Below are positions 3,134 through 50,386 of a stretch of 64,000 nt of DNA, in pieces. The notes under the pieces were generated by a model. The model did not search any database. It had not been told where the DNA came from and worked only from the letters and a program-made list of their open reading frames with translations. Every line of letters starts with the position of its first letter. Within the stretch, counting starts at the first letter, position 1. This DNA comes from Candidatus Bathyarchaeota archaeon (GTDB taxonomy: Archaea; Thermoproteota; Bathyarchaeia; 40CM-2-53-6; RBG-13-38-9). Location of the stretch: the NCBI GenBank assembly GCA_963807605.1, contig CAWECG010000004.1:599090-663089 (forward strand), read 5' to 3'. The position numbers and the translations under genes are program-made.

Positions 3134-4481
3134 CAAAAAAAGGTGAGCGGGAAATCCCCCACCCTTTAGGGGTGGGATGAAAGCGAACTGGTATCAGCAT
3201 TATAAGCGGAGTTTACAAAAAACTTAGTGAGTACAATGCAGTCTTCAGTACGCTATAGGCTTTACCCAACAAGGGAACAAGAGGAGGAGATGTCTGCAAT
3301 CCTTGAGCTTTGCCGGTGGCTCTACAACTACTTCTTGGGAATAGTTAGGTACAGTGTAAAGGTGCCAAACAGGAAACTTCTACAAGAGATGATCCCTGCC
3401 CTATGCAGATACAAGCCTGAGCTTGAGAAGCTACACTCAAAGACACGGCAATACGTCCTCTACCAACTGTACTCTAATCTCAGGGCACTCTCACAGATGA
3501 AGAAGAAAGGCAGGAAGGTTGGGAGGCTAAGATTCAAGGGACGTGGATGGTTCAAGGCCTTCATCTACAACCAATCTGGATTCTCAATCAAGCATGGTGC
3601 CAAGCAGATACGACAGATGGGATTACTCCACCTCAGCAAGATAGGAGAAATTCCAGTCAGACTGCATAGAGAGATTGATGGTGAGATCAAACAGGTTATC
3701 ATCAAACATTCTGCAAACAACAATTGGTATGCAATAACCTCCATTGAATATGACCATCCGATAAATACTGAGCCAGCGGACAGAAGCAAAACTGTTGGGG
3801 TAGATGTTGGCATAGTAAACTATGCCTACGATTCTAATGGAAGAGTGACCCCTCATCCGCATAACATCGACAAAAAACTGAAGAGACTCCAAAGAGAGCA
3901 AAGGCAGCTATCAAGAAAGAAGGGATCAAGAAACAGGATGAAGCAGAAGGTCAAGGTTGCATCAATCCATGAGGACATAACAAACTGCAGGAATGACTTC
4001 CTGCACAAACTCTCAAGGTACTACGTTGACAAACACGATGTAATCTGCATGGAAGATCTGAATATTCAGGATTTGATGCAGGGGATCCCTAATGCCAAGA
4101 ATATGGCTGATGCTTCATGGGGAAGATTTGGAATGATGGTGGGGTACAAGGCTGAAACCGCCTGTAAACATCGAATACAAGTACCGCCCCAGAACACCAG
4201 CCAGGATTGCAGTGGATGTGGCGCTAAGGTTCCTAAGACTCTTGCAGTGAGGATACACAAGTGTCCCCATTGTAGGCTAAAGATTGATAGGGACTTCAAT
4301 GCATCACTCAATATAAGGCGTTTAGGACTGGAAAGAATAGGGTGGGAACCATCCGAATACACGCCTGTGGAGATGAAGCCTCTACCAACCATTATTCGTG
4401 GGCATGCTTCGTCGCTGAAGCAGGAACTTCTCCATCCGCAAGGGGAGAAGCCCACACCCTTCAGGGGTGGGTAAGTTCACG
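3134..4481 (+). mobile_element. IS200/IS605-family tnpB-only element, family C
   Basis: Left end AAAAAAAGGTGAGCGGGAAATCC plus hairpin CCCACCCTTTAGGGGTGGG, upstream of tnpB. Right end hairpin CCCACACCCTTCAGGGGTGGG followed by GTAAGTTCACG directly after the stop. Both termini recur fused together at 12681..12730. Confidence 0.6.
3227..4474 (+). CDS. tnpB: TnpB-like RNA-guided endonuclease (OrfB), family C
   Basis: N-terminal RYRLYPTREQEE motif. RuvC-like core. C-terminal zinc finger CSGCG...CPHCR. Confidence 0.8.
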   Translation: MSTMQSSVRYRLYPTREQEEEMSAILELCRWLYNYFLGIVRYSVKVPNRKLLQEMIPALCRYKPELEKLHSKTRQYVLYQLYSNLRALSQMKKKGRKVGRLRFKGRGWFKAFIYNQSGFSIKHGAKQIRQMGLLHLSKIGEIPVRLHREIDGEIKQVIIKHSANNNWYAITSIEYDHPINTEPADRSKTVGVDVGIVNYAYDSNGRVTPHPHNIDKKLKRLQREQRQLSRKKGSRNRMKQKVKVASIHEDITNCRNDFLHKLSRYYVDKHDVICMEDLNIQDLMQGIPNAKNMADASWGRFGMMVGYKAETACKHRIQVPPQNTSQDCSGCGAKVPKTLAVRIHKCPHCRLKIDRDFNASLNIRRLGLERIGWEPSEYTPVEMKPLPTIIRGHASSLKQELLHPQGEKPTPFRGG

Positions 4482-16551: not shown

Positions 16552-17519
16552 CTCGTGGTTCTCCTTCGTATGATTCTTTGGGCGATTCCACCCTCACCCG
16601 TCTCCTCCCTAATCTCCTTGCCCGTGTACCTGATAAAAACGTCCTCCAAGCTTGCAGGTCTGACCTCGACACTCTCGACTTTTCCAGCCGTATTAAGTAT
16701 CTCTTGGAGATGTTCGTTCGAATTTCTAACCGTCAGGATGATGTAGTTGTCTTCCACCTCGATCTTACTGACGCTCTGCATCTTCCTGAACCGATCAGTA
16801 TCTGAAATTGATGTTTTCAAGCAAACGATGTCTCCTCCAACCGTCTCCTTAAGGTTTTGAGGGGTGTCCATGACGATTATCTTCCCCTGATCGATTATTG
16901 CGATTCTGTCGCAGAGTCTGTCAGCCTCTTCCATATAATGTGTCGAGAGGATTATGGTCATCTCGAGTTTCTTGGACAGGTTCTCTATGTATTCCCAGAT
17001 ATGTTCGCGAGTCTGAGGGTCTAGTCCTAGGGTAGGTTCATCCAAGAATAACACCTTGGGAAGGTGGAGGAGACCTCGAGCTATCTCGAGCCTTCTCCTC
17101 ATCCCCCCAGAGTAGGTCTTGACAAGGCTATGTTGTCGGTCTTTGAGGGCTACCAGCTCAAGGACGTCGTCTATCCTCTCATCTCGTATCTTCTTGGGAA
17201 TGCGATACCACATTGCATGGAACTGCAGATTCTCTCTTCCAGTAAGTATATCGTCGACGCTAGGTTCTTGAAATACTATGCCGATGGACTTCCGGACATC
17301 GCCAGGTTTCCTCAGTATGTCGTAGCCATTGACCGTGGCAGTACCCTCGGTCGGCCGCAGAATTGTGCAGAGCATTGAAATGCTCGTCGTCTTGCCGGCA
17401 CCGTTGGGCCCGAGTATGCCAAAGATCTCTCCCTGTTTGATCTTGATGTTAAGCCGATCCACGGCTGTGAGATCCTTAAACCTCTTAGTAAGGTCGAAGG
17501 TCTCTATAGCATTCTCCAA
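16548..17519 (-). CDS. ABC transporter ATP-binding protein
   Basis: Walker A GPNGAGKTT, signature YSGGMRRRLEIA, Walker B LFLDEPT. Confidence 0.8.
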   Translation of the reverse strand: MENAIETFDLTKRFKDLTAVDRLNIKIKQGEIFGILGPNGAGKTTSISMLCTILRPTEGTATVNGYDILRKPGDVRKSIGIVFQEPSVDDILTGRENLQFHAMWYRIPKKIRDERIDDVLELVALKDRQHSLVKTYSGGMRRRLEIARGLLHLPKVLFLDEPTLGLDPQTREHIWEYIENLSKKLEMTIILSTHYMEEADRLCDRIAIIDQGKIIVMDTPQNLKETVGGDIVCLKTSISDTDRFRKMQSVSKIEVEDNYIILTVRNSNEHLQEILNTAGKVESVEVRPASLEDVFIRYTGKEIREETGEGGIAQRIIRRRTTR

Positions 17520-17698
17520 TGTCCGGTGAACTCCTAGGTGGAGATAAGTCTAGAGTGGCGACCTATTTGTCTTGCTCCAGATCCGAATACATCTTGATTT
17601 TTTTCTTGCTATTCGGGAGTTACCGCACGTATTCTTGGAGTAGATATGGGAAGCGCAACCTGATGTCACGTCTCAAAGGTTCATTAGCCACTCCGTTT

Positions 17699-18961
17699 CT
17701 AAAAATGTGTATTTTTATGCACGACATTTTTATTCGGAGCGTTGGATGGCTCTGTCCCACCTGCTCCTCGGTCCTTGGCCGGGGTGTACAGGTATTCATT
17801 CTTCTTCGCCATCCAAGAGGCGTCCGCACTCACGGCAAACGGTTGGCCGCATAGGCGTAGTCCACGTTGAACTATCTCCAGTGAGGAGAGCTTGTTTCGT
17901 GCGTAGTCCACGCCGCAGGTGTCACACTTTGATATCTCCCAGGCTGGGTGCTTTAGTTTGTCACTGCAGACGGGACACTCTGAGGAGGTCCCTCTTGGGT
18001 TCACGTACAAGGTGCGATTAGGAGATTTGTACTCGACCATAGACTGGTAGAGGCGGTAGGGCCATCGGTTCAGGTGCATCCTGAACCTCTTTCCTTTGTT
18101 CTTTCCGCCTTTTCTAATGCCTTTGAGATTCTCGAAGATATGTGAGGTGCCCGGGTTTGCTTTCACGGTCTCTGTGCTGAGTTTGTGGAGGGTGTCGTTT
18201 ATGCGGTTTTTTTGTCTGCCCCGTGTCTCTCTCAGTTTCCTTTCACGTTTCTGCGGGTTCTTGACGTGCAGTTGGATTTGTCGTCGTCTTCTTGAGAAAT
18301 CGTTTTGGATTCTGGTTATTTGTGTGATTGGGGTAGTTTTCACGTCTTCGAGGCTTGGTGTGCTGTTGGCAATCACGGTGGTGGAGTCGATGGTGCTAAA
18401 GTTCAGGTCGCTGCCAACAAATCTGCCGCCTATGGGTTTATTGTCGTCTGTGATGGTGAATGTGAGGCAGATCTTTCTGTCGGTTATCAGCAGCTCGGAT
18501 GGTCTGCCTCTGTTGTATTCTTGGTAGTGTTTGTTGGCGGTGTTGAGTGGTAACCATACGTACTGGTTTGGTTGTAGCGTTACCCTGATCTTGTCGTCCA
18601 TGATTCTGAACAGTTCTGTGTCGATGCGCATCGCCAGCCTTTGGACGTCTGGGATTCGTAGTTCACCGTGATGATTCTTCCTGTACGAGCGAATTATTCC
18701 TGTCGCCGCTCTGCACACGGGGTTGATGTGGTGTCTTGCATAGTCGTATCTGGAGTTGAACCAGTCTCTTGTTTCTCTTCTCAGTATTATTGGGGAAGGT
18801 ATTCTGCGCTCCTTGTCTCTCACGATTATTCTGTAGGCGAGTTGGAGCGAGTAATTGATGGCATCTCGCATGTCCTGAAGGTACTTCACTGTTGCCTCCG
18901 ACGGTTCGTAGCCCCAAGCAATCGTCCTCTTCCCTCCCTTCGACCTCCACGGATGATTCAA
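17699..18961 (-). CDS. tnpB: TnpB-like protein of the IS607 element
   Basis: RuvC-like core. C-terminal zinc ribbon CPVCSDK...CDTCG. Sits immediately downstream of the serine recombinase. Confidence 0.7.
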   Translation of the reverse strand: MNHPWRSKGGKRTIAWGYEPSEATVKYLQDMRDAINYSLQLAYRIIVRDKERRIPSPIILRRETRDWFNSRYDYARHHINPVCRAATGIIRSYRKNHHGELRIPDVQRLAMRIDTELFRIMDDKIRVTLQPNQYVWLPLNTANKHYQEYNRGRPSELLITDRKICLTFTITDDNKPIGGRFVGSDLNFSTIDSTTVIANSTPSLEDVKTTPITQITRIQNDFSRRRRQIQLHVKNPQKRERKLRETRGRQKNRINDTLHKLSTETVKANPGTSHIFENLKGIRKGGKNKGKRFRMHLNRWPYRLYQSMVEYKSPNRTLYVNPRGTSSECPVCSDKLKHPAWEISKCDTCGVDYARNKLSSLEIVQRGLRLCGQPFAVSADASWMAKKNEYLYTPAKDRGAGGTEPSNAPNKNVVHKNTHF

Positions 18962-19569
18962 CGTGCCGTTACCTCCTTTACGGTGGCAAGTAGCTTCTTG
19001 GTCTTGTGGCTTCTGAGTCCATACAGCTTCGCTGAGAGAGAAGTGATTATGGTTATCAGATCCTGAACGAGCTCTTCCTGTGAAGAGATAAACTCTCTAT
19101 TGTTGACCGCCACGATCTCCGTTCCGAATTTCTCGCATAGCCATTGAATCAGGTCGAAGCCGAACCTTGCGAGCCTGTCCTCATATGTAACATAAAGCTT
19201 TGATACTTTCCTGTTCACGATGGCTTCTAGGAGCTTTCGAAGGTCTCTTCTCCGAAAGTTTAGCCCAGACCTGATGTCGCTGAAGACTTCTGCATCGGGC
19301 GAAGCGATCTCTTTTAGTACCCGGATCTGTCTCTCAAGGATTCCTTTCTGGTCATGGGAGGAGACTCGGGCGTAGATTGCTTCCCTTCTATCTTCGGGTA
19401 GACTGAGAACTCTTCTGATTTCGCTCTCGGGAATGCGTCTCATACCACTTGGAAGCCTGATACATTTTATCTTGCCCGCCCTATCCCAAACCTGAATTGT
19501 ATGCACGGTTACACCGAGAGCTGATGCAGCCTCTTTCGGACGGTAACTCTTCTCCACGCTGAAATACAC
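18958..19569 (-). CDS. tnpA: IS607-family serine recombinase/transposase with MerR-like HTH
   Basis: N-terminal MerR-type HTH (EAASALGVTVHTIQVWDRAGKI). Catalytic serine motif AIYARVSSHDQK. Confidence 0.8.
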   Translation of the reverse strand: MYFSVEKSYRPKEAASALGVTVHTIQVWDRAGKIKCIRLPSGMRRIPESEIRRVLSLPEDRREAIYARVSSHDQKGILERQIRVLKEIASPDAEVFSDIRSGLNFRRRDLRKLLEAIVNRKVSKLYVTYEDRLARFGFDLIQWLCEKFGTEIVAVNNREFISSQEELVQDLITIITSLSAKLYGLRSHKTKKLLATVKEVTAR

Positions 19570-19797
19570 CCAAATACATAATTATACATACTTGTTTATG
19601 ACTGTTACATTACCCTCTGGGTTAGAGAGGCGTTCAAGGTCGTGTAGACTTGTCGAAGGCGGAAAGCGTTGGGCTTAACATACTACTCATAACCTCCAGA
19701 CAAGATCTTGGACATCCAGAGTCCAAGAGAATACAAACTACTATCCATCAAGCAGATGATAGATATTGACTCGGCCTTAAGGCATTTAGGTAGGAAA

Positions 19798-21196
19798 TTG
19801 ACACTCCACTGTCTAAAGATAGGGGATTCTAGCTTCTATCATGTTCATCGGTTGATGGGTCATAGCGTTGTTGCGCTCCCACCTCATTCCATCCCACTTT
19901 AGAAGGTTAGGGCGTGTCATCACCCTGTTAATGACTCCCGCAGGGAGCTTAACACCCTGAGTGAGTCCTATATTTACAACACCAATAGCATCCCTATGAG
20001 CCTCCAATCCACAGTTAAGGCATTTGAAGAGTCTACCTTTTCTCTCAATACTTTCTGACCCACATCTCACGCATCTGCTTGAAGTCTTGTATTCACTGAC
20101 TTCTTTGACCCGTATCCCATACTCCTGCGCTGTATGTTCCAGTCTTTGAATAATATAGTTGAAACTCCAGAAGTTGTGGATCATTGAATTGCTCTTCTTG
20201 CCTTTGCTATTGTCATCTCTGATGCCTGTTAGGTCTCCTATCACAATCTTTGAAACACCGAGATCATATCAGATCTCTTACCATGACCCTTATCATGGTG
20301 TTGATGGCCTGCCTGAATCTCCGTTGCCTTATACTGTAGAGTTTGCTGAGTCGCTTCGAACTCTTCTTGCCGTTGACTGCTTCAAGCATGCTCTGGCAAT
20401 CCGCTATTCTCCTATTCCAGTACCACCAATCTGCTAGGAGGTTTCTTCCATTGTATGCTATTGGTTGCCTCCATCCTTCAAGCCAGATGGTGAACAGGTT
20501 GATTACGCCGGGGTCGATGTAGCATGTCTTGGAGCCTTTCGGCTTAAACAATGGCTTTACCTTTACAGCCTGAAAGACACGCCACTTCCCATCAACCTCA
20601 TCATAGATGACCTCGGCCTTTCCCTGCTTGCCACCCCATCTTGTCTTGCCTCGGATGGGTATCTTCAACTTCTTTGGTAGCTTCATCACTTCATCCTTCA
20701 GGCTGTAGATGTCGTTTCTCAGAACCATCATCAGCCTGTAGTTTCCATGTCGCTTCCAGTATCCAGGCATACACACCTTCTCCATGTTTGGCGGAAGTTT
20801 GCCTTCTCGCTCCAGCTGCTTTAATGCAAAGAAGCCCCTCCATGACTCGTTGCTCTTCCTGATGATCTGTTGAGATGTCGCCGAATCGATTAGTGGTGTG
20901 TACTTTCGATAGAGGTCTTTGCATCTCCAATCTAGGGGTTGATAGTTCATGTATGCCTGTCTTTTGCGGTAGGTTGCCTCATTCCAAAGTTTGGCACAGT
21001 TGGTAGCTTTATCCCTCAGCATCCTCTCTTGCTCCACCGTTGGATCAAGGATGAAGGTGTTAGTTCTCCGCATGAAACTACCAGCATTATCATTGAAACA
21101 CCAAGACATTTAAGCCCCAAACGTCTCACTCTTGTCGCAATTCATCCCACCCCTGAAGGAGTGGGCTTTCTTGCTAGTTCAATGTAAGATAGTCCG
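19798..21196 (-). mobile_element. family-A IS200/IS605 tnpB element, copy A1 (gene disrupted)
   Basis: Right-end terminus TTGACACTCC at 19798. Left end ...GGGCTTTCTTGCTAGTTCAAT ending at 21196 with GTAA (TTAC) flank. Confidence 0.7.
19813..21109 (-). pseudogene. tnpB: tnpB family A, frameshifted (pieces 20264..21109 and 19813..20244)
   Basis: The two ORF pieces align to the N-terminal and C-terminal halves of the intact 415-419-aa copies. Confidence 0.7.
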
Positions 21197-21215
21197 ACAT
21201 GTAGGCTGACTGGCT

Positions 21216-21494
21216 ATGTCGGAACCCGAGATAACCACTGTAAGCAAGAAAGGGCAGGTCGTAATACCGAGGGGGATAAGGGAGAAGATGAAGCTGGTGC
21301 CGAAGACAAGACTTCTTGTATACGATTACGATGACACCTTGATTCTCAAGAAACTCATCATTCCGGACGTCGAGATCGAGATGAAGGCCTTGTGGAAAGA
21401 GATCGATAAGAGAATAGACAAGAAGCACAGACCCACCCAGAGAGAGGTAGATGAGGAGATACACGCCTACAGGAAAGAGAAGAAAGCTGAGTGA
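21216..21494 (+). CDS. AbrB/SpoVT/MazE-family antitoxin
   Basis: Swapped-hairpin motif KKGQVVIPRGIREKM. Stop overlaps the downstream PIN gene start. Confidence 0.6.
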   Translation: MSEPEITTVSKKGQVVIPRGIREKMKLVPKTRLLVYDYDDTLILKKLIIPDVEIEMKALWKEIDKRIDKKHRPTQREVDEEIHAYRKEKKAE

Positions 21495-21931
21495 GCATGC
21501 TCAGAGCGGTGCTGGACACAAATGTCTTAGTGTCGAGTCTATTAGCCCTCGGAAAGCCGAGAGAGCTCCTGACGAGAATTCTTAGGAGAGAAATGGCTCT
21601 CGTGATCTCGAAAGAGATCCTGAACGAGTTCATGAGAGTTATGAGAAGAAAGAGATTCTCAGAGTATGCTACAGAAGAGCAGGTTAGGAGATTTGTTGAA
21701 AACGTCAAGAAATCCGCTGAGCTTGTGATGTTGAAAAACGATCTTAAAGTGATCGATGAAGATCCGAAAGACGATATCGTCATAAACACGGCATTAGATG
21801 GAAGTGCTGACCTCATAATCTCAGAAGATCATCATCTGCTCAGTCTCAGAGAATTCAAAGATATCAAGATCGTATCCGTAGACGAAGCTTTACGCATACT
21901 CAAGAAGGGCAGCCGAGCATGCAAGCCTTAG
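21491..21931 (+). CDS. PIN-domain toxin (type II TA)
   Basis: VLDTNVLVSSLL N-terminal PIN motif with downstream acidic residues (EDPKDD, SED). Confidence 0.6.
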   Translation: MSMLRAVLDTNVLVSSLLALGKPRELLTRILRREMALVISKEILNEFMRVMRRKRFSEYATEEQVRRFVENVKKSAELVMLKNDLKVIDEDPKDDIVINTALDGSADLIISEDHHLLSLREFKDIKIVSVDEALRILKKGSRACKP

Positions 21932-21953
21932 TTCCACATTTACATTGAACTAG

Positions 21954-23310
21954 CAAGAAAGCCCACTCCTTCAGGGGTGGGATGAATTGCGACCAGAGTG
22001 AGACGTTTGGGGCTTAAATGTCTGGTGTTTCAATGATAATGCTGGTAGTTTCATGCGGAGAACTAACACCTTCATCCTTGCCCCAACAATGGAGCAAGAA
22101 AGAACACAGGGATAGAGCTACCAACTGTGCTAAACTTTGGAACGAGGCAACCTACCGTAGAAGACAGGCATACATGAACTATCAACCGATAGATTGGGAG
22201 TGCAAAGACCTCTATGAAAAGTATACACCGCTAATCGATTCAGCGACATCTCAACAGATCATCAGAAAGAGCAACGAATCATGGAGGAGCTTCTTTGCCC
22301 TAAAGAAGATGGAGCGAGAAGGCAGACTGCCACTAAATATTGAGAAAGTATGTACGCCAGGGTTCTGGAAAAAAGATGGAAAATACAGGCTGATGATGGT
22401 TCTGAGAAACGACATCTACAGCCTGAAGAATGGAACGATGAAGATATCCATCCGAGGCAAACCCAGATGGGGTGGCAAGCAGGGAAAAGCCGAGGTCATC
22501 TATGATGAGGCTGATGGGAAGTGGCGTGTCTTTCAGGCAGTAAAGGTAAAGCCATTGTTTAAGCCGAAAGGCTCCAAGACATGCTACATCGACCCCGGCG
22601 TAATCAACCTGTTCACCATCTGGCTTGAAGGATGGAGGCAACCAATAGCATGCAATGGAAGAAATCTACTCTCTGATTGGCGGTACTGGAATGAAAGAAT
22701 AGCAAGTTGCCAGAGCACTCTTGAAACAATCAATGGTAAGAAAAACTCAAAGCAGCTAAGCAGATTCTACAGGATGAGACAACGGAGATTCCGACAGGCC
22801 ATCAACACTATGATAAGAAGCGTGGCCAGAGACCTCTATGATCTCGGTGTTTCAAAGATTATGATAGGAGATCTAACGGGCATAAGAGAGAACAATGGAG
22901 AGAATAGTCACAAGGTCAACTCAATGATTCATAACTTTTGGAGCTTCAACTACATTATTCAAAGACTAAAGTGTACAGCGCAGGAATATGGCATAAGAGT
23001 GAAAGAAGTCAGCGAATACAAAACTTCAAGCAGATGCATAAGATGCAGCTCAGAAAACATTGAGAGAAAAGGCAGACTCTTCAAGTGTCTAGAATGTGGA
23101 TTGGAGGCTCATAGGGATGCTATTGGTGTTGTAAATATAGGACTCACTCAGGGGGTTAAGCTCCCTGCGGGAGTGATTAACAGGGCGATGACACGCCCTA
23201 ACCTTCTAAAGTGGGATGGAATGAGGTGGGAGCGCAACAACGCTATGACCCATCAACCGATGAACATGATAGAAGCTAGAATCCCCTGTCTTTAGGCAGG
23301 GGAGTGTCAA
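21954..23310 (+). mobile_element. family-A tnpB element, copy A2
   Basis: TTAC at 21950-21953 followed by left end ATTGAACTAGCAAGAAAGCCCACTCC. Right end ...GGCAGGGGAGTGTCAA ends at 23310. Confidence 0.7.
22018..23295 (+). CDS. tnpB: TnpB family A; N-terminal ~35 residues in a shifted frame relative to other copies
   Basis: From RATNCAKLWNEATY onward it is collinear with the other copies. The canonical MRRTNTFIL start (atgcggagaac at 22053) is out of frame because of small indels. Confidence 0.7.
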   Translation: MSGVSMIMLVVSCGELTPSSLPQQWSKKEHRDRATNCAKLWNEATYRRRQAYMNYQPIDWECKDLYEKYTPLIDSATSQQIIRKSNESWRSFFALKKMEREGRLPLNIEKVCTPGFWKKDGKYRLMMVLRNDIYSLKNGTMKISIRGKPRWGGKQGKAEVIYDEADGKWRVFQAVKVKPLFKPKGSKTCYIDPGVINLFTIWLEGWRQPIACNGRNLLSDWRYWNERIASCQSTLETINGKKNSKQLSRFYRMRQRRFRQAINTMIRSVARDLYDLGVSKIMIGDLTGIRENNGENSHKVNSMIHNFWSFNYIIQRLKCTAQEYGIRVKEVSEYKTSSRCIRCSSENIERKGRLFKCLECGLEAHRDAIGVVNIGLTQGVKLPAGVINRAMTRPNLLKWDGMRWERNNAMTHQPMNMIEARIPCL

Positions 23311-23330
23311 AGGTTTTACTCTTCAAGGAT
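23150..23330 (+). ncRNA. predicted omegaRNA (right-end RNA) of copy A2, including ~16-20 nt guide after GAGTGTCAA
   Basis: By analogy with characterised TnpB systems, the omegaRNA derives from the 3' end of tnpB plus the right end. The conserved terminus here is ATAGAAGCTAGAATCCCCTGTCTTTAGGCAGGGGAGTGTCAA. Not independently verified. Confidence 0.3.
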
Positions 23331-23533
23331 CAGATGCAGATCCTGTTCGCGACGTCAGCCGATTCATGAAGAAACCTCATACCGAACGTATCACATCTAA
23401 TTCATCAAACTCCCAATATTCACCCCTGCGATCTCCAATGCGGCCTTAGCATCTTGTAGGTGTCATAGAAAGAGGAGCTTCTTTCCATACTCATTCATCG
23501 GTGGCTATTGGACTTTGATCACAAGTACTGTAG

Positions 23534-24490
23534 ATGGACACCTCCTGTAGACTACCTCACAGACCTCAAACCGACCAACTATTTTTCAATCAGGTCTACA
23601 GTACTGAGATCTTCGAACGTCCAATCGACCTATGGTGGAATTTAATAGGGGCATGGTTTCGATCTTTTGGAGGCTTTTGTCTTTCAAGCATGCACTTCAA
23701 GGGGATCTTGACTTCAATGGATGAATCATACGCACTTGAGGCTGAGTCGGTCTCGAAGTCCTTCGGCACCGTGAAGGCTGTTGACAGCGTAGATCTACAT
23801 ATCCGTAGAGGCGAAGTCTATGGGCTGCTTGGGCCGAATGGCTCTGGTAAATCCACCTTGATGAAGATGAGTCTAGGACTGTTGAAACCTGATGCCGGCT
23901 CAGTTAAGGTTTATGGAATCGATGTTCAGGAGGATCCTCTGCGGGCTAAACAAATCACTGGTTACGTGCCCGAATCTCCTCGCCTTTACGACTTCCTGAC
24001 AGCCCTTGAATATCTAGACTTTGTCGCAGACATTCGCCAGATGAACTCTCAAGTCAAAGTAGAGCGGGTGAACGAGTTTCTCAGGGCGTTCGAACTTGAA
24101 GGACGGGAGAATGAGATGCTCAGCGGTTACTCGCAGGGGATGAGGCAAAAGGTAGTGATAACCGCCGCGTTACTTCACAGACCCAAACTGTTGATCTTGG
24201 ATGAACCACTGAACGGACTGGACCCGAGATCTGCTCGAATAGTCAAGGATCTGATCTATAAACTTGCGAAGGAAGGAGTCACAGCAGTATTCAGCACCCA
24301 CATCTTAGAGATAGCTGAGGCCGTATGCGACCGCATAGCGATAATGTTCAGGGGAAAGGTGCTCGCTGAAGGCACGCCGACTGAGCTTCGCAAGCAGGCG
24401 GGTATGCCGGGCTCAACCTTGGAGGAACTCTTCCTGAAACTAACAGGGACAGGAGACGTAAGAGAGATAGTTGAGGCTTTGCTGAAGTGA
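23534..24490 (+). CDS. ABC transporter ATP-binding protein
   Basis: Walker A GPNGSGKST, signature YSQGMRQKV, Walker B LILDEP. True start probably an internal Met near 23717. Confidence 0.75.
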   Translation: MDTSCRLPHRPQTDQLFFNQVYSTEIFERPIDLWWNLIGAWFRSFGGFCLSSMHFKGILTSMDESYALEAESVSKSFGTVKAVDSVDLHIRRGEVYGLLGPNGSGKSTLMKMSLGLLKPDAGSVKVYGIDVQEDPLRAKQITGYVPESPRLYDFLTALEYLDFVADIRQMNSQVKVERVNEFLRAFELEGRENEMLSGYSQGMRQKVVITAALLHRPKLLILDEPLNGLDPRSARIVKDLIYKLAKEGVTAVFSTHILEIAEAVCDRIAIMFRGKVLAEGTPTELRKQAGMPGSTLEELFLKLTGTGDVREIVEALLK

Positions 24491-26118
24491 ACCTCAAGAC
24501 AGTCCACAGTCTGGCACTGGTGTTAATTGTTTCTCAGTTGCGGGCGACTCGCCGAACGAGTAACAGATTAGGCGCTCTCAGAAGGCCATCCGCAGTACTC
24601 CTCATAGATGGCCTAGCCTTCCTAGGCGCTTATATGCTGACTCAAAGGCTCACTCCGATAGTCACTAACGGTTCGCACTTGGCTGTCCAGGTCAACGTCG
24701 ACCTACCCATGTTCCTGATTTTTGTGGTGATGCTGTCGGGATTGTTGTGGGAGATCAGCTACTCATTCGCTTTTACATCGACCGACATGGTCAACTATCT
24801 GCCCATCTCTGCAGCAGAGTACGTCTTAGCATCTTCAGTCTCTACTGTCTTCTCATACTCTATCTTTCTGGCTGGCGGTTTGGGAGTCGCGCTCTCTCTT
24901 GCGCAGCAGTTCGGTCTCCTCCGCTTATGGTTTGTGACAGCTGCAATGAGCTTAGTCGCGGTATTCATAGGCGCCTTTGGCGTTGAGATGATGAGGTCGT
25001 TTACGAATAGGGCCTCTTCTTTATTCTACAGACGCAGCGGGAGACCAGTTTTGATATTGAGAACAATAGTTCTCATAGCGGCTATAGTATCCTTTCAGCT
25101 GGCCTTCAATCCGAGATTCGTAATCATTATTCTCGGAGGCGTGACAGCGGGGGCGCAGGCAGCCTGGTATTTCCCCCTGGTGTGGCCGTCACTGACCGTA
25201 GTTCAACTTCTCGGAGCAAAATGGGTCTCCTCTTCTCTTTACGCTGTACTCAGTTTGGCCCTCACATCCAGCTTCTACTTGGCCGCCACCAAGCTGCGAC
25301 AGATTTACTGGATGACAACCCCAGTATCGGTCAGACTCCCTGCAGGCGCATATACTTCCAAAACTGGACTTCTGAGGAGACTCGGTTTGGATGATGCTGA
25401 GAGTGCGATTGTCAGGAAGGATTTCAGATCACTCACCCGTCGCAGAGAGATGGCCAGATTCCTAGCCCTTCCAGTTCTAATAGTCATCTCAATGCTGATT
25501 CCCTCATTAATGTCAACCGAAGAGCAGCCACCCCTATTCTCAAACGTCATCTCCTGGGCCTTCCCGCTAATGCTCGGCATCATATCTTTCGCCCTGCTTA
25601 ATTCGATGATAAGCATTGGACAAGAGGGACATTCGATCTGGAGCCTCTACGCGGCCCCGATATCCCCTAGAGAGTTAGTCCGGGCCAAAGTAGGCGCAAA
25701 TTTAATCCTGACCTTACCTGTAGCCGGAGCGTTCTGGCTTGGCGTAACCCTACTTGGACATCAAAGCCTCAAAACATCCACAGCTTTCCTTCTAATCCTG
25801 ATCGCAACCAGCCTCGTTGAATCCCTTGTGGGCGTCATGGTTGGTTTGAGGTTTCCAGACTTCAATGAGACCATAAGAAGCCGCTTCATCCGGATCCCTG
25901 GTATGCTACTTGGCATGTTGATTGGCGCAATCGCTGAAGGCATCCTACTCGTACCCTATGGGTTCTACCTCTTTCTCGAAGTAACATCAATGAACAGAGA
26001 TGCTTACTTCATTCTCGCCTCTCTAGTCACCGTCGGCCTCGCGACACTGACCTCAAATATTGCCTATCGATATTGCCTGTCCAGAGCCAAAAGACTCCTT
26101 CAAGAAATACCCGTTTAA
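24487..26118 (+). CDS. ABC transporter permease, large polytopic
   Basis: More than 10 hydrophobic helices. 4-nt overlap with the upstream ATPase gene. Confidence 0.5.
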   Translation: MNLKTVHSLALVLIVSQLRATRRTSNRLGALRRPSAVLLIDGLAFLGAYMLTQRLTPIVTNGSHLAVQVNVDLPMFLIFVVMLSGLLWEISYSFAFTSTDMVNYLPISAAEYVLASSVSTVFSYSIFLAGGLGVALSLAQQFGLLRLWFVTAAMSLVAVFIGAFGVEMMRSFTNRASSLFYRRSGRPVLILRTIVLIAAIVSFQLAFNPRFVIIILGGVTAGAQAAWYFPLVWPSLTVVQLLGAKWVSSSLYAVLSLALTSSFYLAATKLRQIYWMTTPVSVRLPAGAYTSKTGLLRRLGLDDAESAIVRKDFRSLTRRREMARFLALPVLIVISMLIPSLMSTEEQPPLFSNVISWAFPLMLGIISFALLNSMISIGQEGHSIWSLYAAPISPRELVRAKVGANLILTLPVAGAFWLGVTLLGHQSLKTSTAFLLILIATSLVESLVGVMVGLRFPDFNETIRSRFIRIPGMLLGMLIGAIAEGILLVPYGFYLFLEVTSMNRDAYFILASLVTVGLATLTSNIAYRYCLSRAKRLLQEIPV

Positions 26119-26302
26119 TTGCAGAGTTATCCGAATAGTCATCGGGCTTGTTGACATGAAAAGGAAGATAGATACAATTGAGAGGAGAATACGGTGAGAT
26201 CGTCAAAGAACAGCCTGTATATTGCGAAGGCTTCAGCCTTTTTCGGCGCCTTCAAAAAGGAATGGAAGATAACTGGTTCAATGAGTCAACCCTTAACTGG
26301 AC

Positions 26303-26722
26303 TTGATGCGAATGGCAATTGAGCCAAGCGCGATCCGTAACAAAATTGATAGCGACAGGTTTGCAAAATTCTTGGGGATTCAGCTGCTTGAGTTGAAGGA
26401 GGGGTATAGCAAGCTCTCTATGACTCTCACGGACAAGATGCTCAATTTTCATAATGTGGGGCACGGTGGTGCGATATTCGCCCTTGCGGACGCGGCATTC
26501 GCGGCTGCAGCCAACTCGCACGGCCAAAAGGCACTAGCTCTCTGCATGAACATCAACTACTGCTCGCCGGCGAAAGAGGGGATGAAGCTTATAGCAGAGG
26601 GCTTCGAGGAGAACCTCGGCAGAAGGACAGGCCTCTATCGAATGATTGTGAGAAGCGACGAGGGGCAACTAATTGCGACATCTTATGGCACTGTCTACCG
26701 TAAGCCAGAAGAATCTATCTAG
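26303..26722 (+). CDS. PaaI/hotdog-fold thioesterase
   Basis: HNVGHGGAIFALADAAFAAAAN hotdog thioesterase signature. Confidence 0.65.
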   Translation: MMRMAIEPSAIRNKIDSDRFAKFLGIQLLELKEGYSKLSMTLTDKMLNFHNVGHGGAIFALADAAFAAAANSHGQKALALCMNINYCSPAKEGMKLIAEGFEENLGRRTGLYRMIVRSDEGQLIATSYGTVYRKPEESI

Positions 26723-26778
26723 GCAACTCAAGAAGGCAACAGCGCTGGTGAAGAGATCTTTGGCACAATCGCTTAGGT

Positions 26779-27993
26779 CTACTTACCCGGGAGACTCTCA
26801 CGGGATTTGCTAATGAATGCGACAAGAGCTATAATGCCTGCGGTGGCCGTTACAACGCTGAACTGAAAAGCCGCAGCCGGACTGATATTGCTCCATAGTG
26901 CCCCGAATGATGCATTCGCGACGAAGGCCCCTATGCCGATAATGGTATAGTAGATGGCGTAGGCGGTCCCCTTCAGGTCCGGCTTTGTGAAGTCGGGGAT
27001 TATGGCACGCTGAACAGTGTCTGAGATCGCGAGGTAGCTCCCGAAGAGGAAGGCTATTACAAATCCATATAGAGGATTTCCCATAACGAAGAAGCCTAGT
27101 GCCGACGTGAAAAGGAAGACCACGTACCCGAGGCCGAGCACGGGGATCTTTCCTACCCTGTCAGCCAATATTCCTGCCGGTACCCCAAGGATAACGGTGG
27201 CAACATTGAGGACGGCATAGACGAGCGGGATATAGTTCATCTCAATCCCTAAAGATCCGGCCTTCAAAAGAATGAATGAGAAGTCGTATGCACCTACAGA
27301 GAATACTCCTAGAGTCAGAAGCAACAAGACAAATCGCCGGTCCAGTACTTCTCTTGCATTCTTGAAGATGCTTCTCTGTCTTACCGGCCCACGATAATCA
27401 CGCACGAAGAAGACGAGTATCAACAGAGCTATTGCGGCAGGGATGAAAGAGAGCCAGAAGACTCCGCGTATGCCGATGAATGGGATAACGGCGAATGCTA
27501 CGATCGGGCCGAGGACGGCACCTACTTGGTCAAGTGACGCTTGGAGACCGAATGCTCTTCCAGATTTTGACTTGGCCACTGAGTCGCTTATCAGGGCGTC
27601 CCTGGGCGAAGTTCTGATGCCCTTTCCAGCTCTGTCTGATACTCTTACCAGCAAGGCTTGGCTCCAGGAGCTGGTTACTGCAAAGATGGGTTTGCTGATT
27701 GAGGACAATCCGTATCCGAGGAGAACAAGAGGCTTCCGTCTAGCGATCTTGTCTGTCAGCAGGCCTGAGAAGACTCTGAACAAGTAGTTAGCGGCTTCAG
27801 CAACACCCTCGATGAGTCCTAGGACTGCGGCTGAACCACCTAGGTCTTTTACGATGAAGAAAGGTAGAACGCCCAGAATCATCTCCGTTGACACGTCTGT
27901 GGAAAGGCTGACATATCCGAGTCTAACCACGTTCCGAAAGCCAAGCTCGCCCTCATGCTCGTCACTTGACTTGGACATGCTCACATCATCCAA
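26779..27993 (-). CDS. MFS transporter
   Basis: Twelve TM helices. DRxGRR-like loops (LTDKIARRKP, LADRVGK). Confidence 0.7.
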   Translation of the reverse strand: MDDVSMSKSSDEHEGELGFRNVVRLGYVSLSTDVSTEMILGVLPFFIVKDLGGSAAVLGLIEGVAEAANYLFRVFSGLLTDKIARRKPLVLLGYGLSSISKPIFAVTSSWSQALLVRVSDRAGKGIRTSPRDALISDSVAKSKSGRAFGLQASLDQVGAVLGPIVAFAVIPFIGIRGVFWLSFIPAAIALLILVFFVRDYRGPVRQRSIFKNAREVLDRRFVLLLLTLGVFSVGAYDFSFILLKAGSLGIEMNYIPLVYAVLNVATVILGVPAGILADRVGKIPVLGLGYVVFLFTSALGFFVMGNPLYGFVIAFLFGSYLAISDTVQRAIIPDFTKPDLKGTAYAIYYTIIGIGAFVANASFGALWSNISPAAAFQFSVVTATAGIIALVAFISKSRESLPGK

Positions 27994-28176: not shown

Positions 28177-29055
28177 TTGTCCCTTTCAAAAAGGTCGTAT
28201 CTGTTTGCAATATTGGTGATATTTGCTTCATCTTACTCTCAGTACTGGGTCAGGGGTCTGGGTGCGATCTCGAGCTTCTTCGTTGTTTACGGGATCCCAC
28301 TGATTATCACCGGCATTATCTTTGGTTCTGAAATTAATCAAAGAGCCTTCAAGAACACGTACAGGGCTTTGAAGTTTGGACTGGCCTCCTTTGGAGGCTT
28401 TACAATTCTGGGCACTCTTGCATCCGTTGCTATCTTCTATATGTTATTGATTCTTGATCCTTCATCTGTGAATCTCTTGAATCGACCTAACCCGGTGCTT
28501 AATATACCGCCTGGGCTTGCCTGGGTAATGATAGGGGTCTCATTCATTATTGTTGGACCGGCTGAGGAGTATATCTTCAGGGGTTTCGTTTACGGCGGCA
28601 TGCTCAACCTTTTCAAGGAACGGCATTGGCTAAGCCTCGCCTTTGCATCATCAATAATATTTGCAATTGTGCATCTGTATTATGCATTAGTGTATAGTAT
28701 TGCTTCGCTAGTCCAATTTGCTGACCTTGTAACCTTCGGCATGGCGATGGCGATCACATACTACCTCTCAGACGGAAATCTTGTCGTCCCCGCACTGATC
28801 CACGGAGCATACGACGCCACAGGATTCCTCGGTGTAGCAGTATCATCAGACCTAGGACTCTTCTTCAGAGGAATGTTGGTTTTGACTGGAATAATCGTCG
28901 GCTTGGGCCTCTTCTTCCAGAATATCCTCAGAAGGAGAGAACAAACCCGAGACATTTCAACCTATACAGGCATGATCTCATCACACTACCAAGTCAGCTA
29001 CCCACGTCTAAAGGCGTGGGCTTGGAATGGTGATACCAACGCAAGAGTTGACTAG
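28177..29055 (+). CDS. CPBP (CAAX protease/Abi) family intramembrane metalloprotease; 3' end runs into the IS left end
   Basis: EEYIFRGF (motif 1), FAIVHLYY (motif 2), IHGAYD (motif 3). The last ~20 codons overlap the IS hairpin CCCACGTCTAAAGGCGTGGG. Confidence 0.65.
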   Translation: MSLSKRSYLFAILVIFASSYSQYWVRGLGAISSFFVVYGIPLIITGIIFGSEINQRAFKNTYRALKFGLASFGGFTILGTLASVAIFYMLLILDPSSVNLLNRPNPVLNIPPGLAWVMIGVSFIIVGPAEEYIFRGFVYGGMLNLFKERHWLSLAFASSIIFAIVHLYYALVYSIASLVQFADLVTFGMAMAITYYLSDGNLVVPALIHGAYDATGFLGVAVSSDLGLFFRGMLVLTGIIVGLGLFFQNILRRREQTRDISTYTGMISSHYQVSYPRLKAWAWNGDTNARVD

Positions 29056-29270
29056 CCTAAGTCCAACTGGGACTACGCCTTCGGAGCTAAAAGCACGTAC
29101 AGACGCCGCCCTAATCTGTACCTCTGCGGCAGAACCACTGAATGCCACAACCAGTAGCAATACTGGTTTAAGCTCTGTTGGCTTTGGCGAAGGGAAACTC
29201 GACTCTTGGCGGAGAGGGGCCGCAATCGGTAACATCCCCGTCACCTCCTCTGACGGAACACTTCTAATGC
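29015..29270 (+). ncRNA. predicted IsrB omegaRNA region (upstream of and overlapping the isrB 5' end)
   Basis: IscB/IsrB omegaRNAs are encoded directly upstream of the ORF starting at the left end. This ~250-nt segment has no convincing ORF; the leading 80 codons of the tracked 417-aa ORF are not IscB-like. Confidence 0.3.
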
Positions 29271-39808: not shown

Positions 39809-41180
39809 TTGACACTCCCCTGCCTAAAGATAGGGGATTCTAGCTTCTATCATGTTCATTGGTTGGTGGGTCACTGCCCTTCTAGGCTGCCACCTCATTC
39901 CATCCCATTTTAGAAGGTTAGGGTGCGTCATCACCCTGATAGCTGTTCCTTCACGTTGAAGGTTTGCCATTTTCAAGACTCCAATAGCATCCCTGTGAAC
40001 TTCCATCCCACACTCCAAGCATTTGAAGAGTCTGCCTTTTCTCTCAATGTTTTCTGAGCTGCATCTTATGCATCTGCTTGAAGTCTTGTATTCGCTGACT
40101 TCTTTTACTCTTATGCCGTATTCTTGTGCCGTACACTTTAGTCTTTGAATGATGTATTTGAAGCTCCAGAAGTTATGGATCATAGCGTTGCTCTTCTTTC
40201 CTTTATCGTTGCCGTCTCTGATGCCTGTTAGGTCTCCTATCACAATCTTTGAAACACCGAGATCATAGAGGTCTCTTACCATGACTCTTATCATGGTGTT
40301 GATGGCCTGCCGGAATCTCCGTTGCCTTATCCTGTACAGTCTATTGAGTTGCTTTGAACTTTTCTTGCCGTTGATTGTTTCAAGTATGCTCTGGCAGTCT
40401 GCTATTCTATCGACCCAGTACCACCAATCAGAGAGTAGATTTCTCCCACTGTATGCTATTGGTTGTTTCCATCCTTCAAGCCAGATGGTGAACAGGTTGA
40501 TTACACCGGGGTCGATGTAGCATGTCTTGGAGCCTTTCGGCTTGAATAATGGCCTAACCTTTACGGCCTGAAAGACACACCACTTTCCAGCCAAATCATC
40601 ATAGATGACCTCGGCTTTCCCCTGTCTTCCGCTCCATTTTGGCTTGCCTCGGATGGGCATCTTCAACTTCTTTGGTAGTCTCATCACTCCATCCTTTACA
40701 CTATAGCAGTCGTTCCTCAGAACCATCATCAGCCTGTATTTCCCATCTCTCTTCCAGTATCCTGGCATACACACCTTCTCCATGTTTGGCGGAAGTTTGC
40801 CTTCTCGCTCCAGCTGCTTTAATGCGAAGAAGCTTCTCCATGACTCGTTGCCCTTCCTGATGATCTGTTGAGATGTCGCCGAATCGATTAGTGGCGTATA
40901 CTTTCGATAGAGGTCTTTGCACTCCCAATTTAGGGGTTGATAGTTCATGTATGCCTGTCTTTTGCGGTATGTCGTCTCATTCCAAAGTTTGGCACAGTTG
41001 GTAGCTTTATCCCTCAGTATCCTCTCTTGCTCCACCATTGGATCAAGGATGAAGGTGTTGGTTCTACGCATGAAACTACCAGTATTATTATTGAAATACC
41101 AGACATTTAAGCCCCAAACGTCTCACTCTGGTCGCAATTCACCCCACCCCTGAAGGAGTGGGCTTTCTTGCTAGTTCAAT
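39809..41180 (-). mobile_element. family-A tnpB element, copy A3
   Basis: Right-end terminus TTGACACTCCCCTGCC at 39809. Left end ...GCTAGTTCAAT ends at 41180 with GTAA flank (TTAC on the gene strand). Confidence 0.75.
39824..41071 (-). CDS. tnpB: TnpB-like RNA-guided endonuclease, family A (intact)
   Basis: MRRTNTFILDP..., RuvC-like DxxxE...D residues, zinc finger CIRCSS...CLECG. Confidence 0.85.
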   Translation of the reverse strand: MRRTNTFILDPMVEQERILRDKATNCAKLWNETTYRKRQAYMNYQPLNWECKDLYRKYTPLIDSATSQQIIRKGNESWRSFFALKQLEREGKLPPNMEKVCMPGYWKRDGKYRLMMVLRNDCYSVKDGVMRLPKKLKMPIRGKPKWSGRQGKAEVIYDDLAGKWCVFQAVKVRPLFKPKGSKTCYIDPGVINLFTIWLEGWKQPIAYSGRNLLSDWWYWVDRIADCQSILETINGKKSSKQLNRLYRIRQRRFRQAINTMIRVMVRDLYDLGVSKIVIGDLTGIRDGNDKGKKSNAMIHNFWSFKYIIQRLKCTAQEYGIRVKEVSEYKTSSRCIRCSSENIERKGRLFKCLECGMEVHRDAIGVLKMANLQREGTAIRVMTHPNLLKWDGMRWQPRRAVTHQPMNMIEARIPYL

Positions 41181-43261: not shown

Positions 43262-43780
43262 ACTGAAGCCGGCTATTATTATTGGTGGTGAGGCAGCGTT
43301 ATTTAGACTTATTATTCATAGTGATATTGTGATATCGACATTCCCAACATTGAGTGTAGCATTTGATAGAGAAATGCATTCAAGAAACCATCAATATTGA
43401 GTGTATTCAATCGAGTTCTTGAAACTCTGCCATCTATCATTCGTGGCTAGAGGAAACTAGAGTCGATGTTGAAATGGAGTGACAAGCAGCTCAACAAGAA
43501 ACAGCACGAAGCACTTGAAGCAATCTCGCTCTTTCACGTAGAGGCACCACAAGGTGCGCGCTTGAAGCCACTATGTCTGCAATATTAGAACTTCAACGTA
43601 TTTACGTCCTTCAATCATGAGGTTTGCGTGTTCAACTTCGTGTCCCGACTGTTAACAGCTGGAAGAATGTCCCACGAACGTAACAGAACCCTTTTCAGAA
43701 CACCGATTTTTCCACATATTAAAGTAAGGAAGAAAGTCTTAAGTAAGACCCTAAAATTTTGTATTAATGCGGTGGGTGTA

Positions 43781-44041
43781 ATGACCAAAGTAGTGAGTGT
43801 TACTCAAAAGGGCCAGGCAACCATTCCTAAAGCCCTGAGAGACAAGTTCAGAGTTAAAGGAAAAGTTCTCGTGGTTGAGACGTCGGAAGGCATACTCTTT
43901 AAACCCCTGCCACGTCCTGAAGACGACTTCGGCTCATTAAAGCAGCACTTCAAAGGAGAGACGGCGCGAAAGGTTCTGGACGAAGCCAGGAGTAGAGACG
44001 AGCTGCGGGAGAAGAGGCTGCTGGAGAAAATCAGAGATTGA
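43781..44041 (+). CDS. vapB: AbrB/SpoVT-family VapB-like antitoxin
   Basis: From the internal Met: MTKVVSVTQKGQATIPKALRDKF. Stop overlaps the PIN gene start. Confidence 0.6.
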   Translation: MTKVVSVTQKGQATIPKALRDKFRVKGKVLVVETSEGILFKPLPRPEDDFGSLKQHFKGETARKVLDEARSRDELREKRLLEKIRD

Positions 44042-44433
44042 ACATTGTCTTCGACACTGAAGCTCTCTTAGCCTTCTATCTGGGTGAACCCAGAGGCAGA
44101 GAAGTTGAGAAATACCTTGCAAAGGTGATGGAGGGAGAACTGAAGGGTTACCTGAACATACTCACCCTGTCTGAGCTCTACTATATCCTGTATAGGAACA
44201 GCCCTGCATTAGCTGAGGAGAAGGAGCAGAACCTCCGCAGCTATGGTTTGGATATAGTTCCAATCGATGACGATGGCCTCTGGAAAGAAGCTGCAAAGAT
44301 GAAGGGAAAGCATGCTCTCTCACTAGCAGATGCCTTCGCAGCGGCAACTGCAAAGATAAAGAAGGCAAGCCTCCTAACAGGCAGGGATAAAGAGTTTCAT
44401 AGTCTGGACATCCCCATAGAACGAATAGACTAA
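44038..44433 (+). CDS. vapC: PIN-domain VapC-like toxin
   Basis: MNIVFDTEALLAFYL..., LSLADAFAAATA, TGRDKEF. Confidence 0.65.
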   Translation: MNIVFDTEALLAFYLGEPRGREVEKYLAKVMEGELKGYLNILTLSELYYILYRNSPALAEEKEQNLRSYGLDIVPIDDDGLWKEAAKMKGKHALSLADAFAAATAKIKKASLLTGRDKEFHSLDIPIERID

Positions 44434-49621: not shown

Positions 49622-49643
49622 AGTTCAATGTAAGAGAGGATTA

Positions 49644-49787
49644 TTACCGCATCAAGAAGCTCTTCTTGAGAGCTTTTTCAGCTTCTTCTAGTTTTGTCGA
49701 TGCGACCTCAAGTGATCTGGCGGTCTTCGCAGCATCTGGTCTTCCCCGCCTTAGCAGCCTCTTCTGAAAGCACTCTGTGAGATTCAT
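49644..49787 (-). CDS. 47-aa alpha-helical ORF with start overlapping the MNT stop (ATGA); possible HEPN-like remnant
   Basis: MNLTECFQKRLLRRGRPDAAKTARSLEVASTKLEEAEKALKKSFLMR**. Ends 2 codons before the TTAC flank of the family-A left end. Confidence 0.3.
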   Translation of the reverse strand: MNLTECFQKRLLRRGRPDAAKTARSLEVASTKLEEAEKALKKSFLMR

Positions 49788-50386
49788 CTTTTGATCATCG
49801 GTAGGTTGCCTTGAATGACTATTCCGTCAGTGATTATGCTTTCATAGAAGGCTTCATCCTGTTTGGCCTTCTCTTCCCACTCCGGGGAAGTGTAAACCAG
49901 AAGGTTGATGTTTCGATTAAGTCTCTTTTCAAAGGCAGCCATCTCAACCTTTTCAGCTCTTCCTATTACTAGGAGATCGATATCGCTGCCCTTGTCATCT
50001 TCTCCTCTTGCGCAACTTCCATATATTATGATCGAGCACTCCTCGTAATTCTGTTTGAGATACTGGGTTAAGGGTTTCACGTCACGAAGGAAGTGTGCTA
50101 TCTTAAAGTGTCTGAACATAGGGTCCTCCATATCTGCCTTGAAGAATACTAGGTTGGCCTTCTTGGTTCTCACTAGAAAACCGTCGATTGTAAGTGAATC
50201 TAGGAAGGTCTTGGCAGTGCTGGCGCTTACTCCTGCGTGGGAGGCGACTTCTCGGAGATAGAACTCTCTGTAGGGCTCGTTGAGAAAGACCTTCAATATT
50301 CTCAGACCTGGATATTCGAATAGATTTTCCATAGAACAATCGTTCAATATAAAGAACAATTGTTCTTTATAAAAATTCGCCCTCAT
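49784..50386 (-). CDS. minimal nucleotidyltransferase (MNT) with N-terminal winged helix
   Basis: GSCARGEDDKGSDIDLLVI matches the Pol-beta NTase GS...DxD signature. Confidence 0.65.
   Translation of the reverse strand: MRANFYKEQLFFILNDCSMENLFEYPGLRILKVFLNEPYREFYLREVASHAGVSASTAKTFLDSLTIDGFLVRTKKANLVFFKADMEDPMFRHFKIAHFLRDVKPLTQYLKQNYEECSIIIYGSCARGEDDKGSDIDLLVIGRAEKVEMAAFEKRLNRNINLLVYTSPEWEEKAKQDEAFYESIITDGIVIQGNLPMIKR

Follow-up and report, generated by a model that had tools for sequence, protein, structure and literature searches.

Two IS608-like insertion sequences around a toxin-antitoxin operon of a Bathyarchaeota genome: probable independent insertions, one of them into the operon leader

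Introduction

Composite transposons of the Tn5/Tn10 type consist of two related, inverted IS copies that flank a short cargo. Insertion sequences with DDE transposases have equivalent inverted repeats at both ends, and the outer ends of a pair can therefore be used together. The ends of elements of the IS200/IS605 family, in contrast, are non-equivalent and strand-specific: TnpA cleaves the top strand only, and it needs a left and a right end on the same strand (PMC3201880, PMC5027513). In IS608 from Helicobacter pylori, TTAC is located 19 nt from the left hairpin, the sequences GL and CR are AAAG and TCAA, respectively, and the right end is cleaved after TCAA (PMC3201880). Homing and retention by TnpB and its reRNA have been described for ISDra2, in which the TAM is the same as the transposon target (PMC8612924). 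For one clade of archaeal TnpBs that are not mobile, a partnership with MazE/RHH proteins has also been proposed (PMC10691335).

The DNA analysed here, hereafter called the window, is a stretch of 64,000 nucleotides from a Candidatus Bathyarchaeota archaeon (assembly GCA_963807605.1, contig CAWECG010000004.1, positions 599,090 to 663,089). The original prediction for this window, made from the letters alone, described an antitoxin gene and a PIN toxin gene between two inward-facing tnpB-carrying elements, and offered two explanations: a composite-transposon-like unit mobilising the toxin-antitoxin (TA) module, or two independent TTAC-directed insertions on either side of a TA locus.

Materials and methods

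The TA leader was compared with the leaders of five distinct, IS-free homologous TA loci located in unrelated genomic contexts. All 20-mers of the window on both strands (127,960) were scored against the in-register 20-mers of the homologs. For the chance test, five elements were assigned randomly to positions among the 326 TTAC sites that the IS-free window contains.

Results

The toxin-antitoxin pair and the two facing elements

The DNA between the two elements, hereafter called A1 and A2, holds the antitoxin/PIN pair and nothing else, as had been predicted. The antitoxin gene (21216-21494, plus strand) encodes 92 amino acids with an AbrB/MazE/SpoVT-type DNA-binding domain (PF04014, 2.1e-07; TIGR01439, 2.4e-10), and the toxin gene (21497-21931, plus strand) encodes a PIN-domain protein (PF13470, 1.9e-16; TIGR00305, 1.7e-18) of 144 amino acids if translation starts at the ATG, or of 146 amino acids if it starts at an alternative GTG at 21491. 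Both ORFs are intact, and they are separated by 2 nt or, with the GTG start, overlap by 4 nt. In an alignment with 20 homologs the toxin keeps the invariant acidic D/E residues, and the antitoxin aligns over its full length with antitoxins of 89 amino acids encoded beside PIN homologs of about 70 % identity. The pair resembles type II VapBC-like TA systems (AbrB/MazE/SpoVT plus PIN, TIGR00305 type) in these conserved acidic residues and in having a small DNA-binding antitoxin gene directly upstream of the PIN toxin gene, and differs from them in that an IS of 1.39 kb lies between the operon and its promoter and a second IS replaces the 3′ flank. The AbrB/MazE-PIN pairing, together with a conserved promoter and leader, recurs in many Bathyarchaeia contigs, the same pair being found in loci L003-L015 and L100-L107.

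The leader in the window also contains an 8-bp perfect inverted repeat (21193-21200 and 21216-21223, TCCGACAT ... ATGTCGGA), which overlaps the antitoxin ATG, so that a stem would pair the start codon. This repeat is missing from the homologous TA leaders.

A1 (19798-21183, minus strand) is a decayed, IS608-like copy with tnpB as its only gene, and A2 (21944-23310, plus strand) is a copy with intact ends. The prediction that these are two divergent tnpB elements with their left ends facing each other was confirmed, the left ends forming an inverted repeat of 84 nt (21104-21187 and 21940-22023) with 99 % complementarity, which extends at 87-94 % complementarity through the whole of A1 and A2. 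The presence of TTAC at both inward ends was confirmed as well, at other positions than those predicted. The target and cleavage tetranucleotide of A1 is at 21184-21187 (minus strand, GTAA on the plus strand), 28 nt from the antitoxin ATG, and that of A2 is at 21940-21943 (plus strand), 8 nt past the PIN stop codon. Positions 21197-21200, given earlier for GTAA, read ACAT, and positions 21950-21953, given for TTAC, read CTAG, the earlier coordinates being shifted by 10-13 nt. The segment, originally measured as 757 bp, is 760 bp long with both tetranucleotides included and 752 bp between them.

The insertion sequence family

The window contains five copies of this family (family A), the others being A3 (39809-41180), A4 (44663-46035) and A5 (48246-49629), all on the minus strand and with intact tnpB genes of 415, 418 and 419 codons' worth of amino acids, respectively. 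In all five, TTAC is directly followed by the conserved left end (ATTGAACTAGCAAG...) and the last letters of the right end are ...GTGTCAA; the flanks are otherwise unrelated and without target duplication. The two ends of the elements are non-identical, lack terminal inverted repeats and each have a hairpin in subterminal position. In single-stranded form, the left end would form an 8-bp hairpin beginning 18 nt past TTAC, with AAAG just 5′ of its foot, and the right end an 8-bp hairpin followed by ..GTGTCAA, in which TCAA ends 8 nt from the hairpin foot. The 3′ end of tnpB overlaps the right end of the element.

The TnpB proteins have OrfB_IS605 and Cas12f1-like TNB domains (PF01385 and PF07282 were matched in A1 and A2), and the TnpB of A5 scored 141.9 bits against NF040570, guided_TnpB, for which the cutoff is 100. 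No Y1 transposase TnpA was found among the scanned ORFs of the window (at least 130 amino acids), which covers 64 kb of a contig of at least 732 kb, or inside the family A elements. Because the scanned ORFs include no such gene, mobility would depend on a TnpA encoded elsewhere, presumably supplied in trans from another part of the genome.

Family A was assigned to the IS608-like group because its end features match the IS608 end code; on these features it is an archaeal, tnpB-only member of the IS200/IS605 family. As in the H. pylori element, insertion is 3′ of TTAC without target duplication, the last four letters of the right end are TCAA, the ends are asymmetric with subterminal imperfect hairpins, and the AAAG at the left foot is identical to the GL guide. 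The differences are that the left hairpin foot is 18 nt from TTAC instead of 19 nt, that TCAA is 8 nt from the right foot instead of 10 nt, and that the host is an archaeon (Bathyarchaeia-like), with no Y1 tnpA found in the elements or the scanned window ORFs.

IS200/IS605 elements are usually oriented according to the lagging-strand template. In family A, A2 is the sole copy on the plus strand, the other four being on the minus strand, and A2 may be in the disfavoured orientation. The left-end pattern of the family was not found in viral contigs. A remnant of 135 nt, 84 % identical to the family A right end and guide-RNA region, is present in L003 / L004 (2140-2274, minus strand), 3.4 kb from the TA homolog, which shows that family A or a relative of it is present in other Bathyarchaeia-type genomes.

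Decay and mosaicism of the copies

Identities among the five copies are 85-91 %, and the copies are mosaic, the identity per 100-nt block ranging between 68 and 99 % from one copy to another. The value for A1 and A2, 88.7 %, does not set them apart from the other copies as a closer pair; their identity is 99 % at alignment columns 600-700 and 77 % at columns 800-900, and A3 and A4 are 97-99 % identical at columns 800-1200. One variant of the right end is common to A1, A2 and A5, and another, with a 12-nt deletion, to A3 and A4. The copies are thus recombinant mosaics, formed by recombination or gene conversion, and identities of 85-91 % between mosaic copies indicate old recombining elements, as opposed to a recent burst.

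The tnpB of A1 has a private 1-nt insertion (+1 frameshift) that divides it into two ORFs (20264-21109 and 19813-20244). In A2, a 2-nt deletion 19 codons into tnpB terminates the canonical N-terminus (MRRTNTFILAPTMEQERTQG*), and there is an additional in-frame deletion of 18 nt; the annotated ORF of 425 amino acids (22018-23295) starts in another frame. The right-end hairpin of A1 is broken (CCCCTATC...GACAGTGG), and the stem no longer folds. The right hairpins of A4 (CACCCCGCC...GGCGGGTG, 44663-44700, minus strand) and A2 (CCCCTGTC...GGCAGGGG, 23270-23310, plus strand) differ by compensatory changes that keep the stem. As judged from these lesions, A1 and A2 are both decaying copies and not a freshly made matched pair.

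Reconstruction of the split leader

Homologs of the toxin with about 70 % identity, each with a cognate antitoxin of 89 amino acids encoded upstream, are found in at least five contexts on Bathyarchaeia-type contigs. The original prediction had proposed looking for the TA cassette elsewhere, with or without flanking tnpB copies, and in at least five genomic contexts the homologous pairs occur without flanking family A copies. In the five IS-free loci used for comparison the leader has three parts in this order: a BRE/TATA-like box, GTAGGAAA and GTA(A/G)GA, the last 31-32 nt before the antitoxin ATG.

Both halves of this leader are present in the window, one on each side of A1. The displaced 5′ half (19770-19797, plus strand), which aligns in register with the five IS-free loci, includes a BRE/TATA-like box (AAGGCATTTAGG) upstream of GTAGGAAA and lies directly against the right end of A1. 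The sequence ...GCATTTAGGTAGGAAA stops exactly at that end, the longer sequence read up to it being ...AAGGCATTTAGGTAGGAAA; by the archaeal promoter consensus, AAGGCATTTAGG is a putative BRE/TATA box. The 3′ half (21184-21215, plus strand; GTAAGATAG...) begins 32 nt before the antitoxin ATG, flush with the left end of A1, and has GTAAGA at the native spacing. When position 19797 is joined to 21184, the family leader is rebuilt and the Mafft alignment runs across the junction. Both A1 junctions match the native TA leader in spacing and in orientation to the ATG. The 20-mer at 19778-19797 was the unique best of the 127,960 scored, with 16 of 20 positions identical to L100 and 15 of 20 to L102. 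The intact leader motif GTAGGAAAGTAAGA was not found in the window, as expected with A1 splitting it.

Because the leader halves flank A1 and rejoin into the family leader, the TA operon and its promoter were in place before A1, and A1 is a simple insertion into a pre-existing TA leader, not an arm of a co-arriving unit. Since both junctions fit the native leader, the TA segment is not inverted relative to its promoter. The empty-site junctions predicted for the A1 and A2 insertions read ...CATTTAGGTAGGAAA|GTAAGATAGTCC... and ...TTCCACATTTAC|AGGTTTTACTCTTC.... The independence of A2 is argued from its complete canonical ends and from the transposition mechanism, the DNA downstream of the toxin gene not being conserved among the homologs; the empty-site junction expected for A2 downstream of the toxin gene is ...CCACATTTAC|AGGTTTTACTC....

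The TA unit is only partly within the bracket, the 5′ half of its promoter and leader (approximately 19770-19797) being outside A1, which rules out a cargo located wholly between the IS copies. The outer ends cannot be a joint transposase substrate either, as both are right ends, one on each strand, and the hairpin of the A1 end is disrupted.

Related loci and chance proximity

An exact-sequence search with the toxin (three start variants) and the antitoxin matched no contig. A scan of genome contigs with the toxin found only relatives of 33-37 % identity, and a scan of metagenome contigs with the toxin alignment found relatives of up to 53 % identity among the matches listed, too distant for the leaders to be compared. 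Among relatives of the toxin and of the adjacent ABC permease, those that bear a name were labelled Bathyarchaeia, the group to which the host would therefore probably belong. For the flanking ABC permease, the closest relatives have about 60 % identity and also keep the ATPase-permease pair; synteny via the permease showed a different upstream context in the relatives, with no TA pair. When 107 metagenome loci were scanned for tnpB, only sporadic fragments were found. An Rfam search of 17000-24000 gave no match.

The contig L108 (Logan ERR10755942) corresponds to positions 23282-27744 of the window with 1 mismatch in 4463 nt and is an independent assembly from the same organism. It breaks 29 nt inside the right end of A2 and provides no empty-site variant, and it is consistent with A2 being present in the ERR10755942 read set as well.

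In L100 (2778-3011) and L101 (1979-2212), the 3′-terminal remnant of an IS607-type tnpB is found 58 nt past the stop codon of the homologous PIN gene. Its nucleotide identity to the window element at 17.7 kb is 72 %, and on the contig that bears it there are additional genes for MazE and PIN proteins as well as an IS-type HTH gene. As far as these contigs and the window indicate, TA modules and IS copies are recurrently co-located, without a fixed architecture.

In the chance test, some pair of elements was found within 760 bp in 24 % of the random placements (P=0.24), and a pair within 760 bp with the left ends facing in 5.8 %. Chance can account for the proximity of A1 and A2, but not for the repeats and the TTAC rule, which exceed it by far.

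Other mobile and toxin-antitoxin genes in the window

The window is very rich in mobile DNA: its 64 kb contain eight tnpB genes, five of them in family A, and at least three families are represented. Directly to the left of the displaced promoter are the genes of an IS607-type element unrelated to family A (17699-19569, minus strand), encoding a serine recombinase (18958-19569, minus strand; NF033518, 190 bits; PF00239) and a TnpB (17699-18961, minus strand; PF07282 / PF01385). Further tnpB genes that do not belong to family A are located at 3227-4474 (plus strand) and 36045-37241 (minus strand). An ORF of 417 amino acids with an RRXRR domain (29027-30280, plus strand; PF14239, 2e-41) scored 126 bits against the RNA-guided endonuclease IscB model NF040563, below the cutoff of 175, and may encode an IscB-like OMEGA nuclease or a truncated one.

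A second AbrB/MazE-PIN pair (43628-44433, plus strand) stops 230 nt short of the right end of A4, and a TATA-like/AAGTAAG motif is present at 43716-43750, upstream of its AbrB domain. A solitary PIN gene (38373-38771, minus strand) is located about 1 kb from A3, and nucleotidyltransferase genes (49784-50386 and 54151-54711) are found near A5.

Discussion

The arrangement is very probably the result of two separate TTAC-directed insertions of family A elements into a pre-existing chromosomal TA operon, and not a composite transposon. A type II TA operon (AbrB/MazE plus PIN), of a family common in Bathyarchaeia, was already at the site. A1 would have landed on the conserved minus-strand TTAC 32 nt upstream of the antitoxin ATG, pushing the TA promoter 1.39 kb from its genes, and A2 on the plus-strand TTAC located 8 nt beyond the end of the toxin gene, with the inward-facing orientation reflecting only which strand carries each TTAC. 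The suggestion of two independent insertions on either side of a TA locus thus holds as to independence, and fails for A1 as to position, since A1 is inside the locus, between the promoter and the antitoxin start codon, and not beside it. We infer both the order and the timing of the two insertions. The TA pair may still be expressed, for example from transcripts that start at the displaced promoter and cross A1; five or more consecutive T were found nowhere on the plus strand across A1, an absence that is not statistically meaningful.

The 760-bp TA segment has six TTAC/GTAA sites, three in the antitoxin gene, one in the toxin gene and two in non-coding DNA, and both of the non-coding sites are the ones occupied by A1 and A2. 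At each of the other four, an insertion would interrupt one of the two genes. From established TA biology, insertions that disrupt an antitoxin gene are expected to be lethal, which would apply to this locus too. Because only two of the sites are non-coding, and with selection acting in addition, the tight bracket would be the expected outcome. Several observations count against independent insertions: inward-facing left ends within 760 bp have a chance probability of only 0.058; the comparison with related genomes that had been proposed as a check found no IS-free allele of the exact locus, and the only other assembly of the organism, L108, is consistent with the presence of A2; beyond the toxin gene the homologs share too little sequence for a junction test of A2; and the window ORFs of at least 130 amino acids include no Y1 TnpA.

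If A1 and A2 moved the TA cassette as one unit, as in Tn5/Tn10, two related inverted IS copies around a compact cargo of 752 bp, left ends with 99 % identity over 84 nt and a selfish addiction-type module as cargo would all be accounted for. We nevertheless consider this very improbable, and the composite-transposon-like unit of the original prediction is not sustained. The outer flank of A1 is the cargo's own promoter, that of the TA family, and the TA locus therefore predates A1 at this site; the cargo extends beyond one IS, which is a further difference from Tn5/Tn10-type composites. The one-strand mechanism of IS200/IS605 elements also argues against such a unit, each strand here carrying one complete element and the outer ends being two right ends on opposite strands. 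Furthermore, the right-end hairpin of A1 is destroyed, the copies are 11 % diverged with both tnpB genes frameshifted, no Y1 TnpA is encoded by the window ORFs of at least 130 amino acids, and the TA homologs examined (relatives of about 70 % identity) have no flanking family A copies. No second A1-TA-A2 block was found in the 64-kb window. Homologous recombination between the inverted copies could only invert the TA segment, not excise it.

That recombination did play a part, so that only one of the elements was inserted at the locus and either A2 or the orientation of the TA segment arose by homologous recombination or inversion between family A copies, is an unlikely explanation. The mosaic structure of the five copies points to recombination or gene conversion between them, A2 is the only one on the plus strand, and the lack of conservation downstream of the toxin gene in the homologs leaves no junction test for A2. 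The signature of A2 is nevertheless that of a simple insertion, with a full left end after TTAC, a full right end in TCAA and an intact hairpin, and the A1 junctions fit the native leader, therefore the TA segment is not inverted relative to its promoter. Even less credence, a minimal probability, is given to the AbrB/MazE protein being the antitoxin or regulator partner of a neighbouring TnpB. The AbrB/MazE gene is indeed only 28 nt from the TTAC site and 32 nt from the left end of A1, the tnpB of A2 is co-directional and downstream of the TA pair, and the published association is archaeal (PMC10691335). Against this, the AbrB/MazE gene is tightly coupled to the PIN gene in a pair conserved in many genomes without tnpB, A1 is divergently oriented, and the tnpB genes lie within bounded, multi-copy mobile elements and are both frameshifted. 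In the published MazE/RHH-TnpB pairs, tnpB directly follows the MazE/RHH gene and has a rearranged catalytic site (PMC10691335), whereas here it is the PIN gene that follows AbrB/MazE.

With two independent insertions as the preferred reading, the locus reveals no new way of moving TA genes. The arrangement of TA and IS is ordinary, and both the IS elements and the TA pair belong to well-known kinds. The value of the locus is as a worked example of how the conserved leader of homologous cassettes can be used to rebuild a pre-insertion junction when no empty-site genome exists, and such leader reconstruction separates a composite from independent insertions.

A further, joint reading, to which we give a low probability, is that the minus-strand TTAC in the TA leader is a recurrent landing site and that insertion there rewires both partners. 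If this were true, the displaced TA promoter would fire antisense through all of A1, damping the TnpB and guide RNA of A1, and the TA pair would still be expressed, on a leader of 1.4 kb, with transcription running in the sense direction into A2. The similarity to ISDra2 is that the predicted TAM, TTAC, is the family A target, with a predicted guide of about 16 nt flanking each right end. The predicted guides are TTTCCTACCTAAATGC for A1, which is the TA promoter, and AGGTTTTACTCTTCAA for A2, and together with TTAC they would specify the empty donor joints. The difference from ISDra2 is that the tnpB genes of A1 and A2 are frameshifted, and activity would depend on TnpB made in trans by A3-A5. 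If the rewiring were real, the guide RNA of A1 would carry the TA promoter and, with TnpB in trans, could target uninterrupted paralogous TA leaders.

For the family itself, the comparison indicates that an archaeal IS608-type family shares the TTAC/TCAA/AAAG end code with the H. pylori element. A3-A5 would provide three apparently intact TnpB proteins with TTAC as the predicted TAM, which may be of interest in the mining of compact RNA-guided nucleases.
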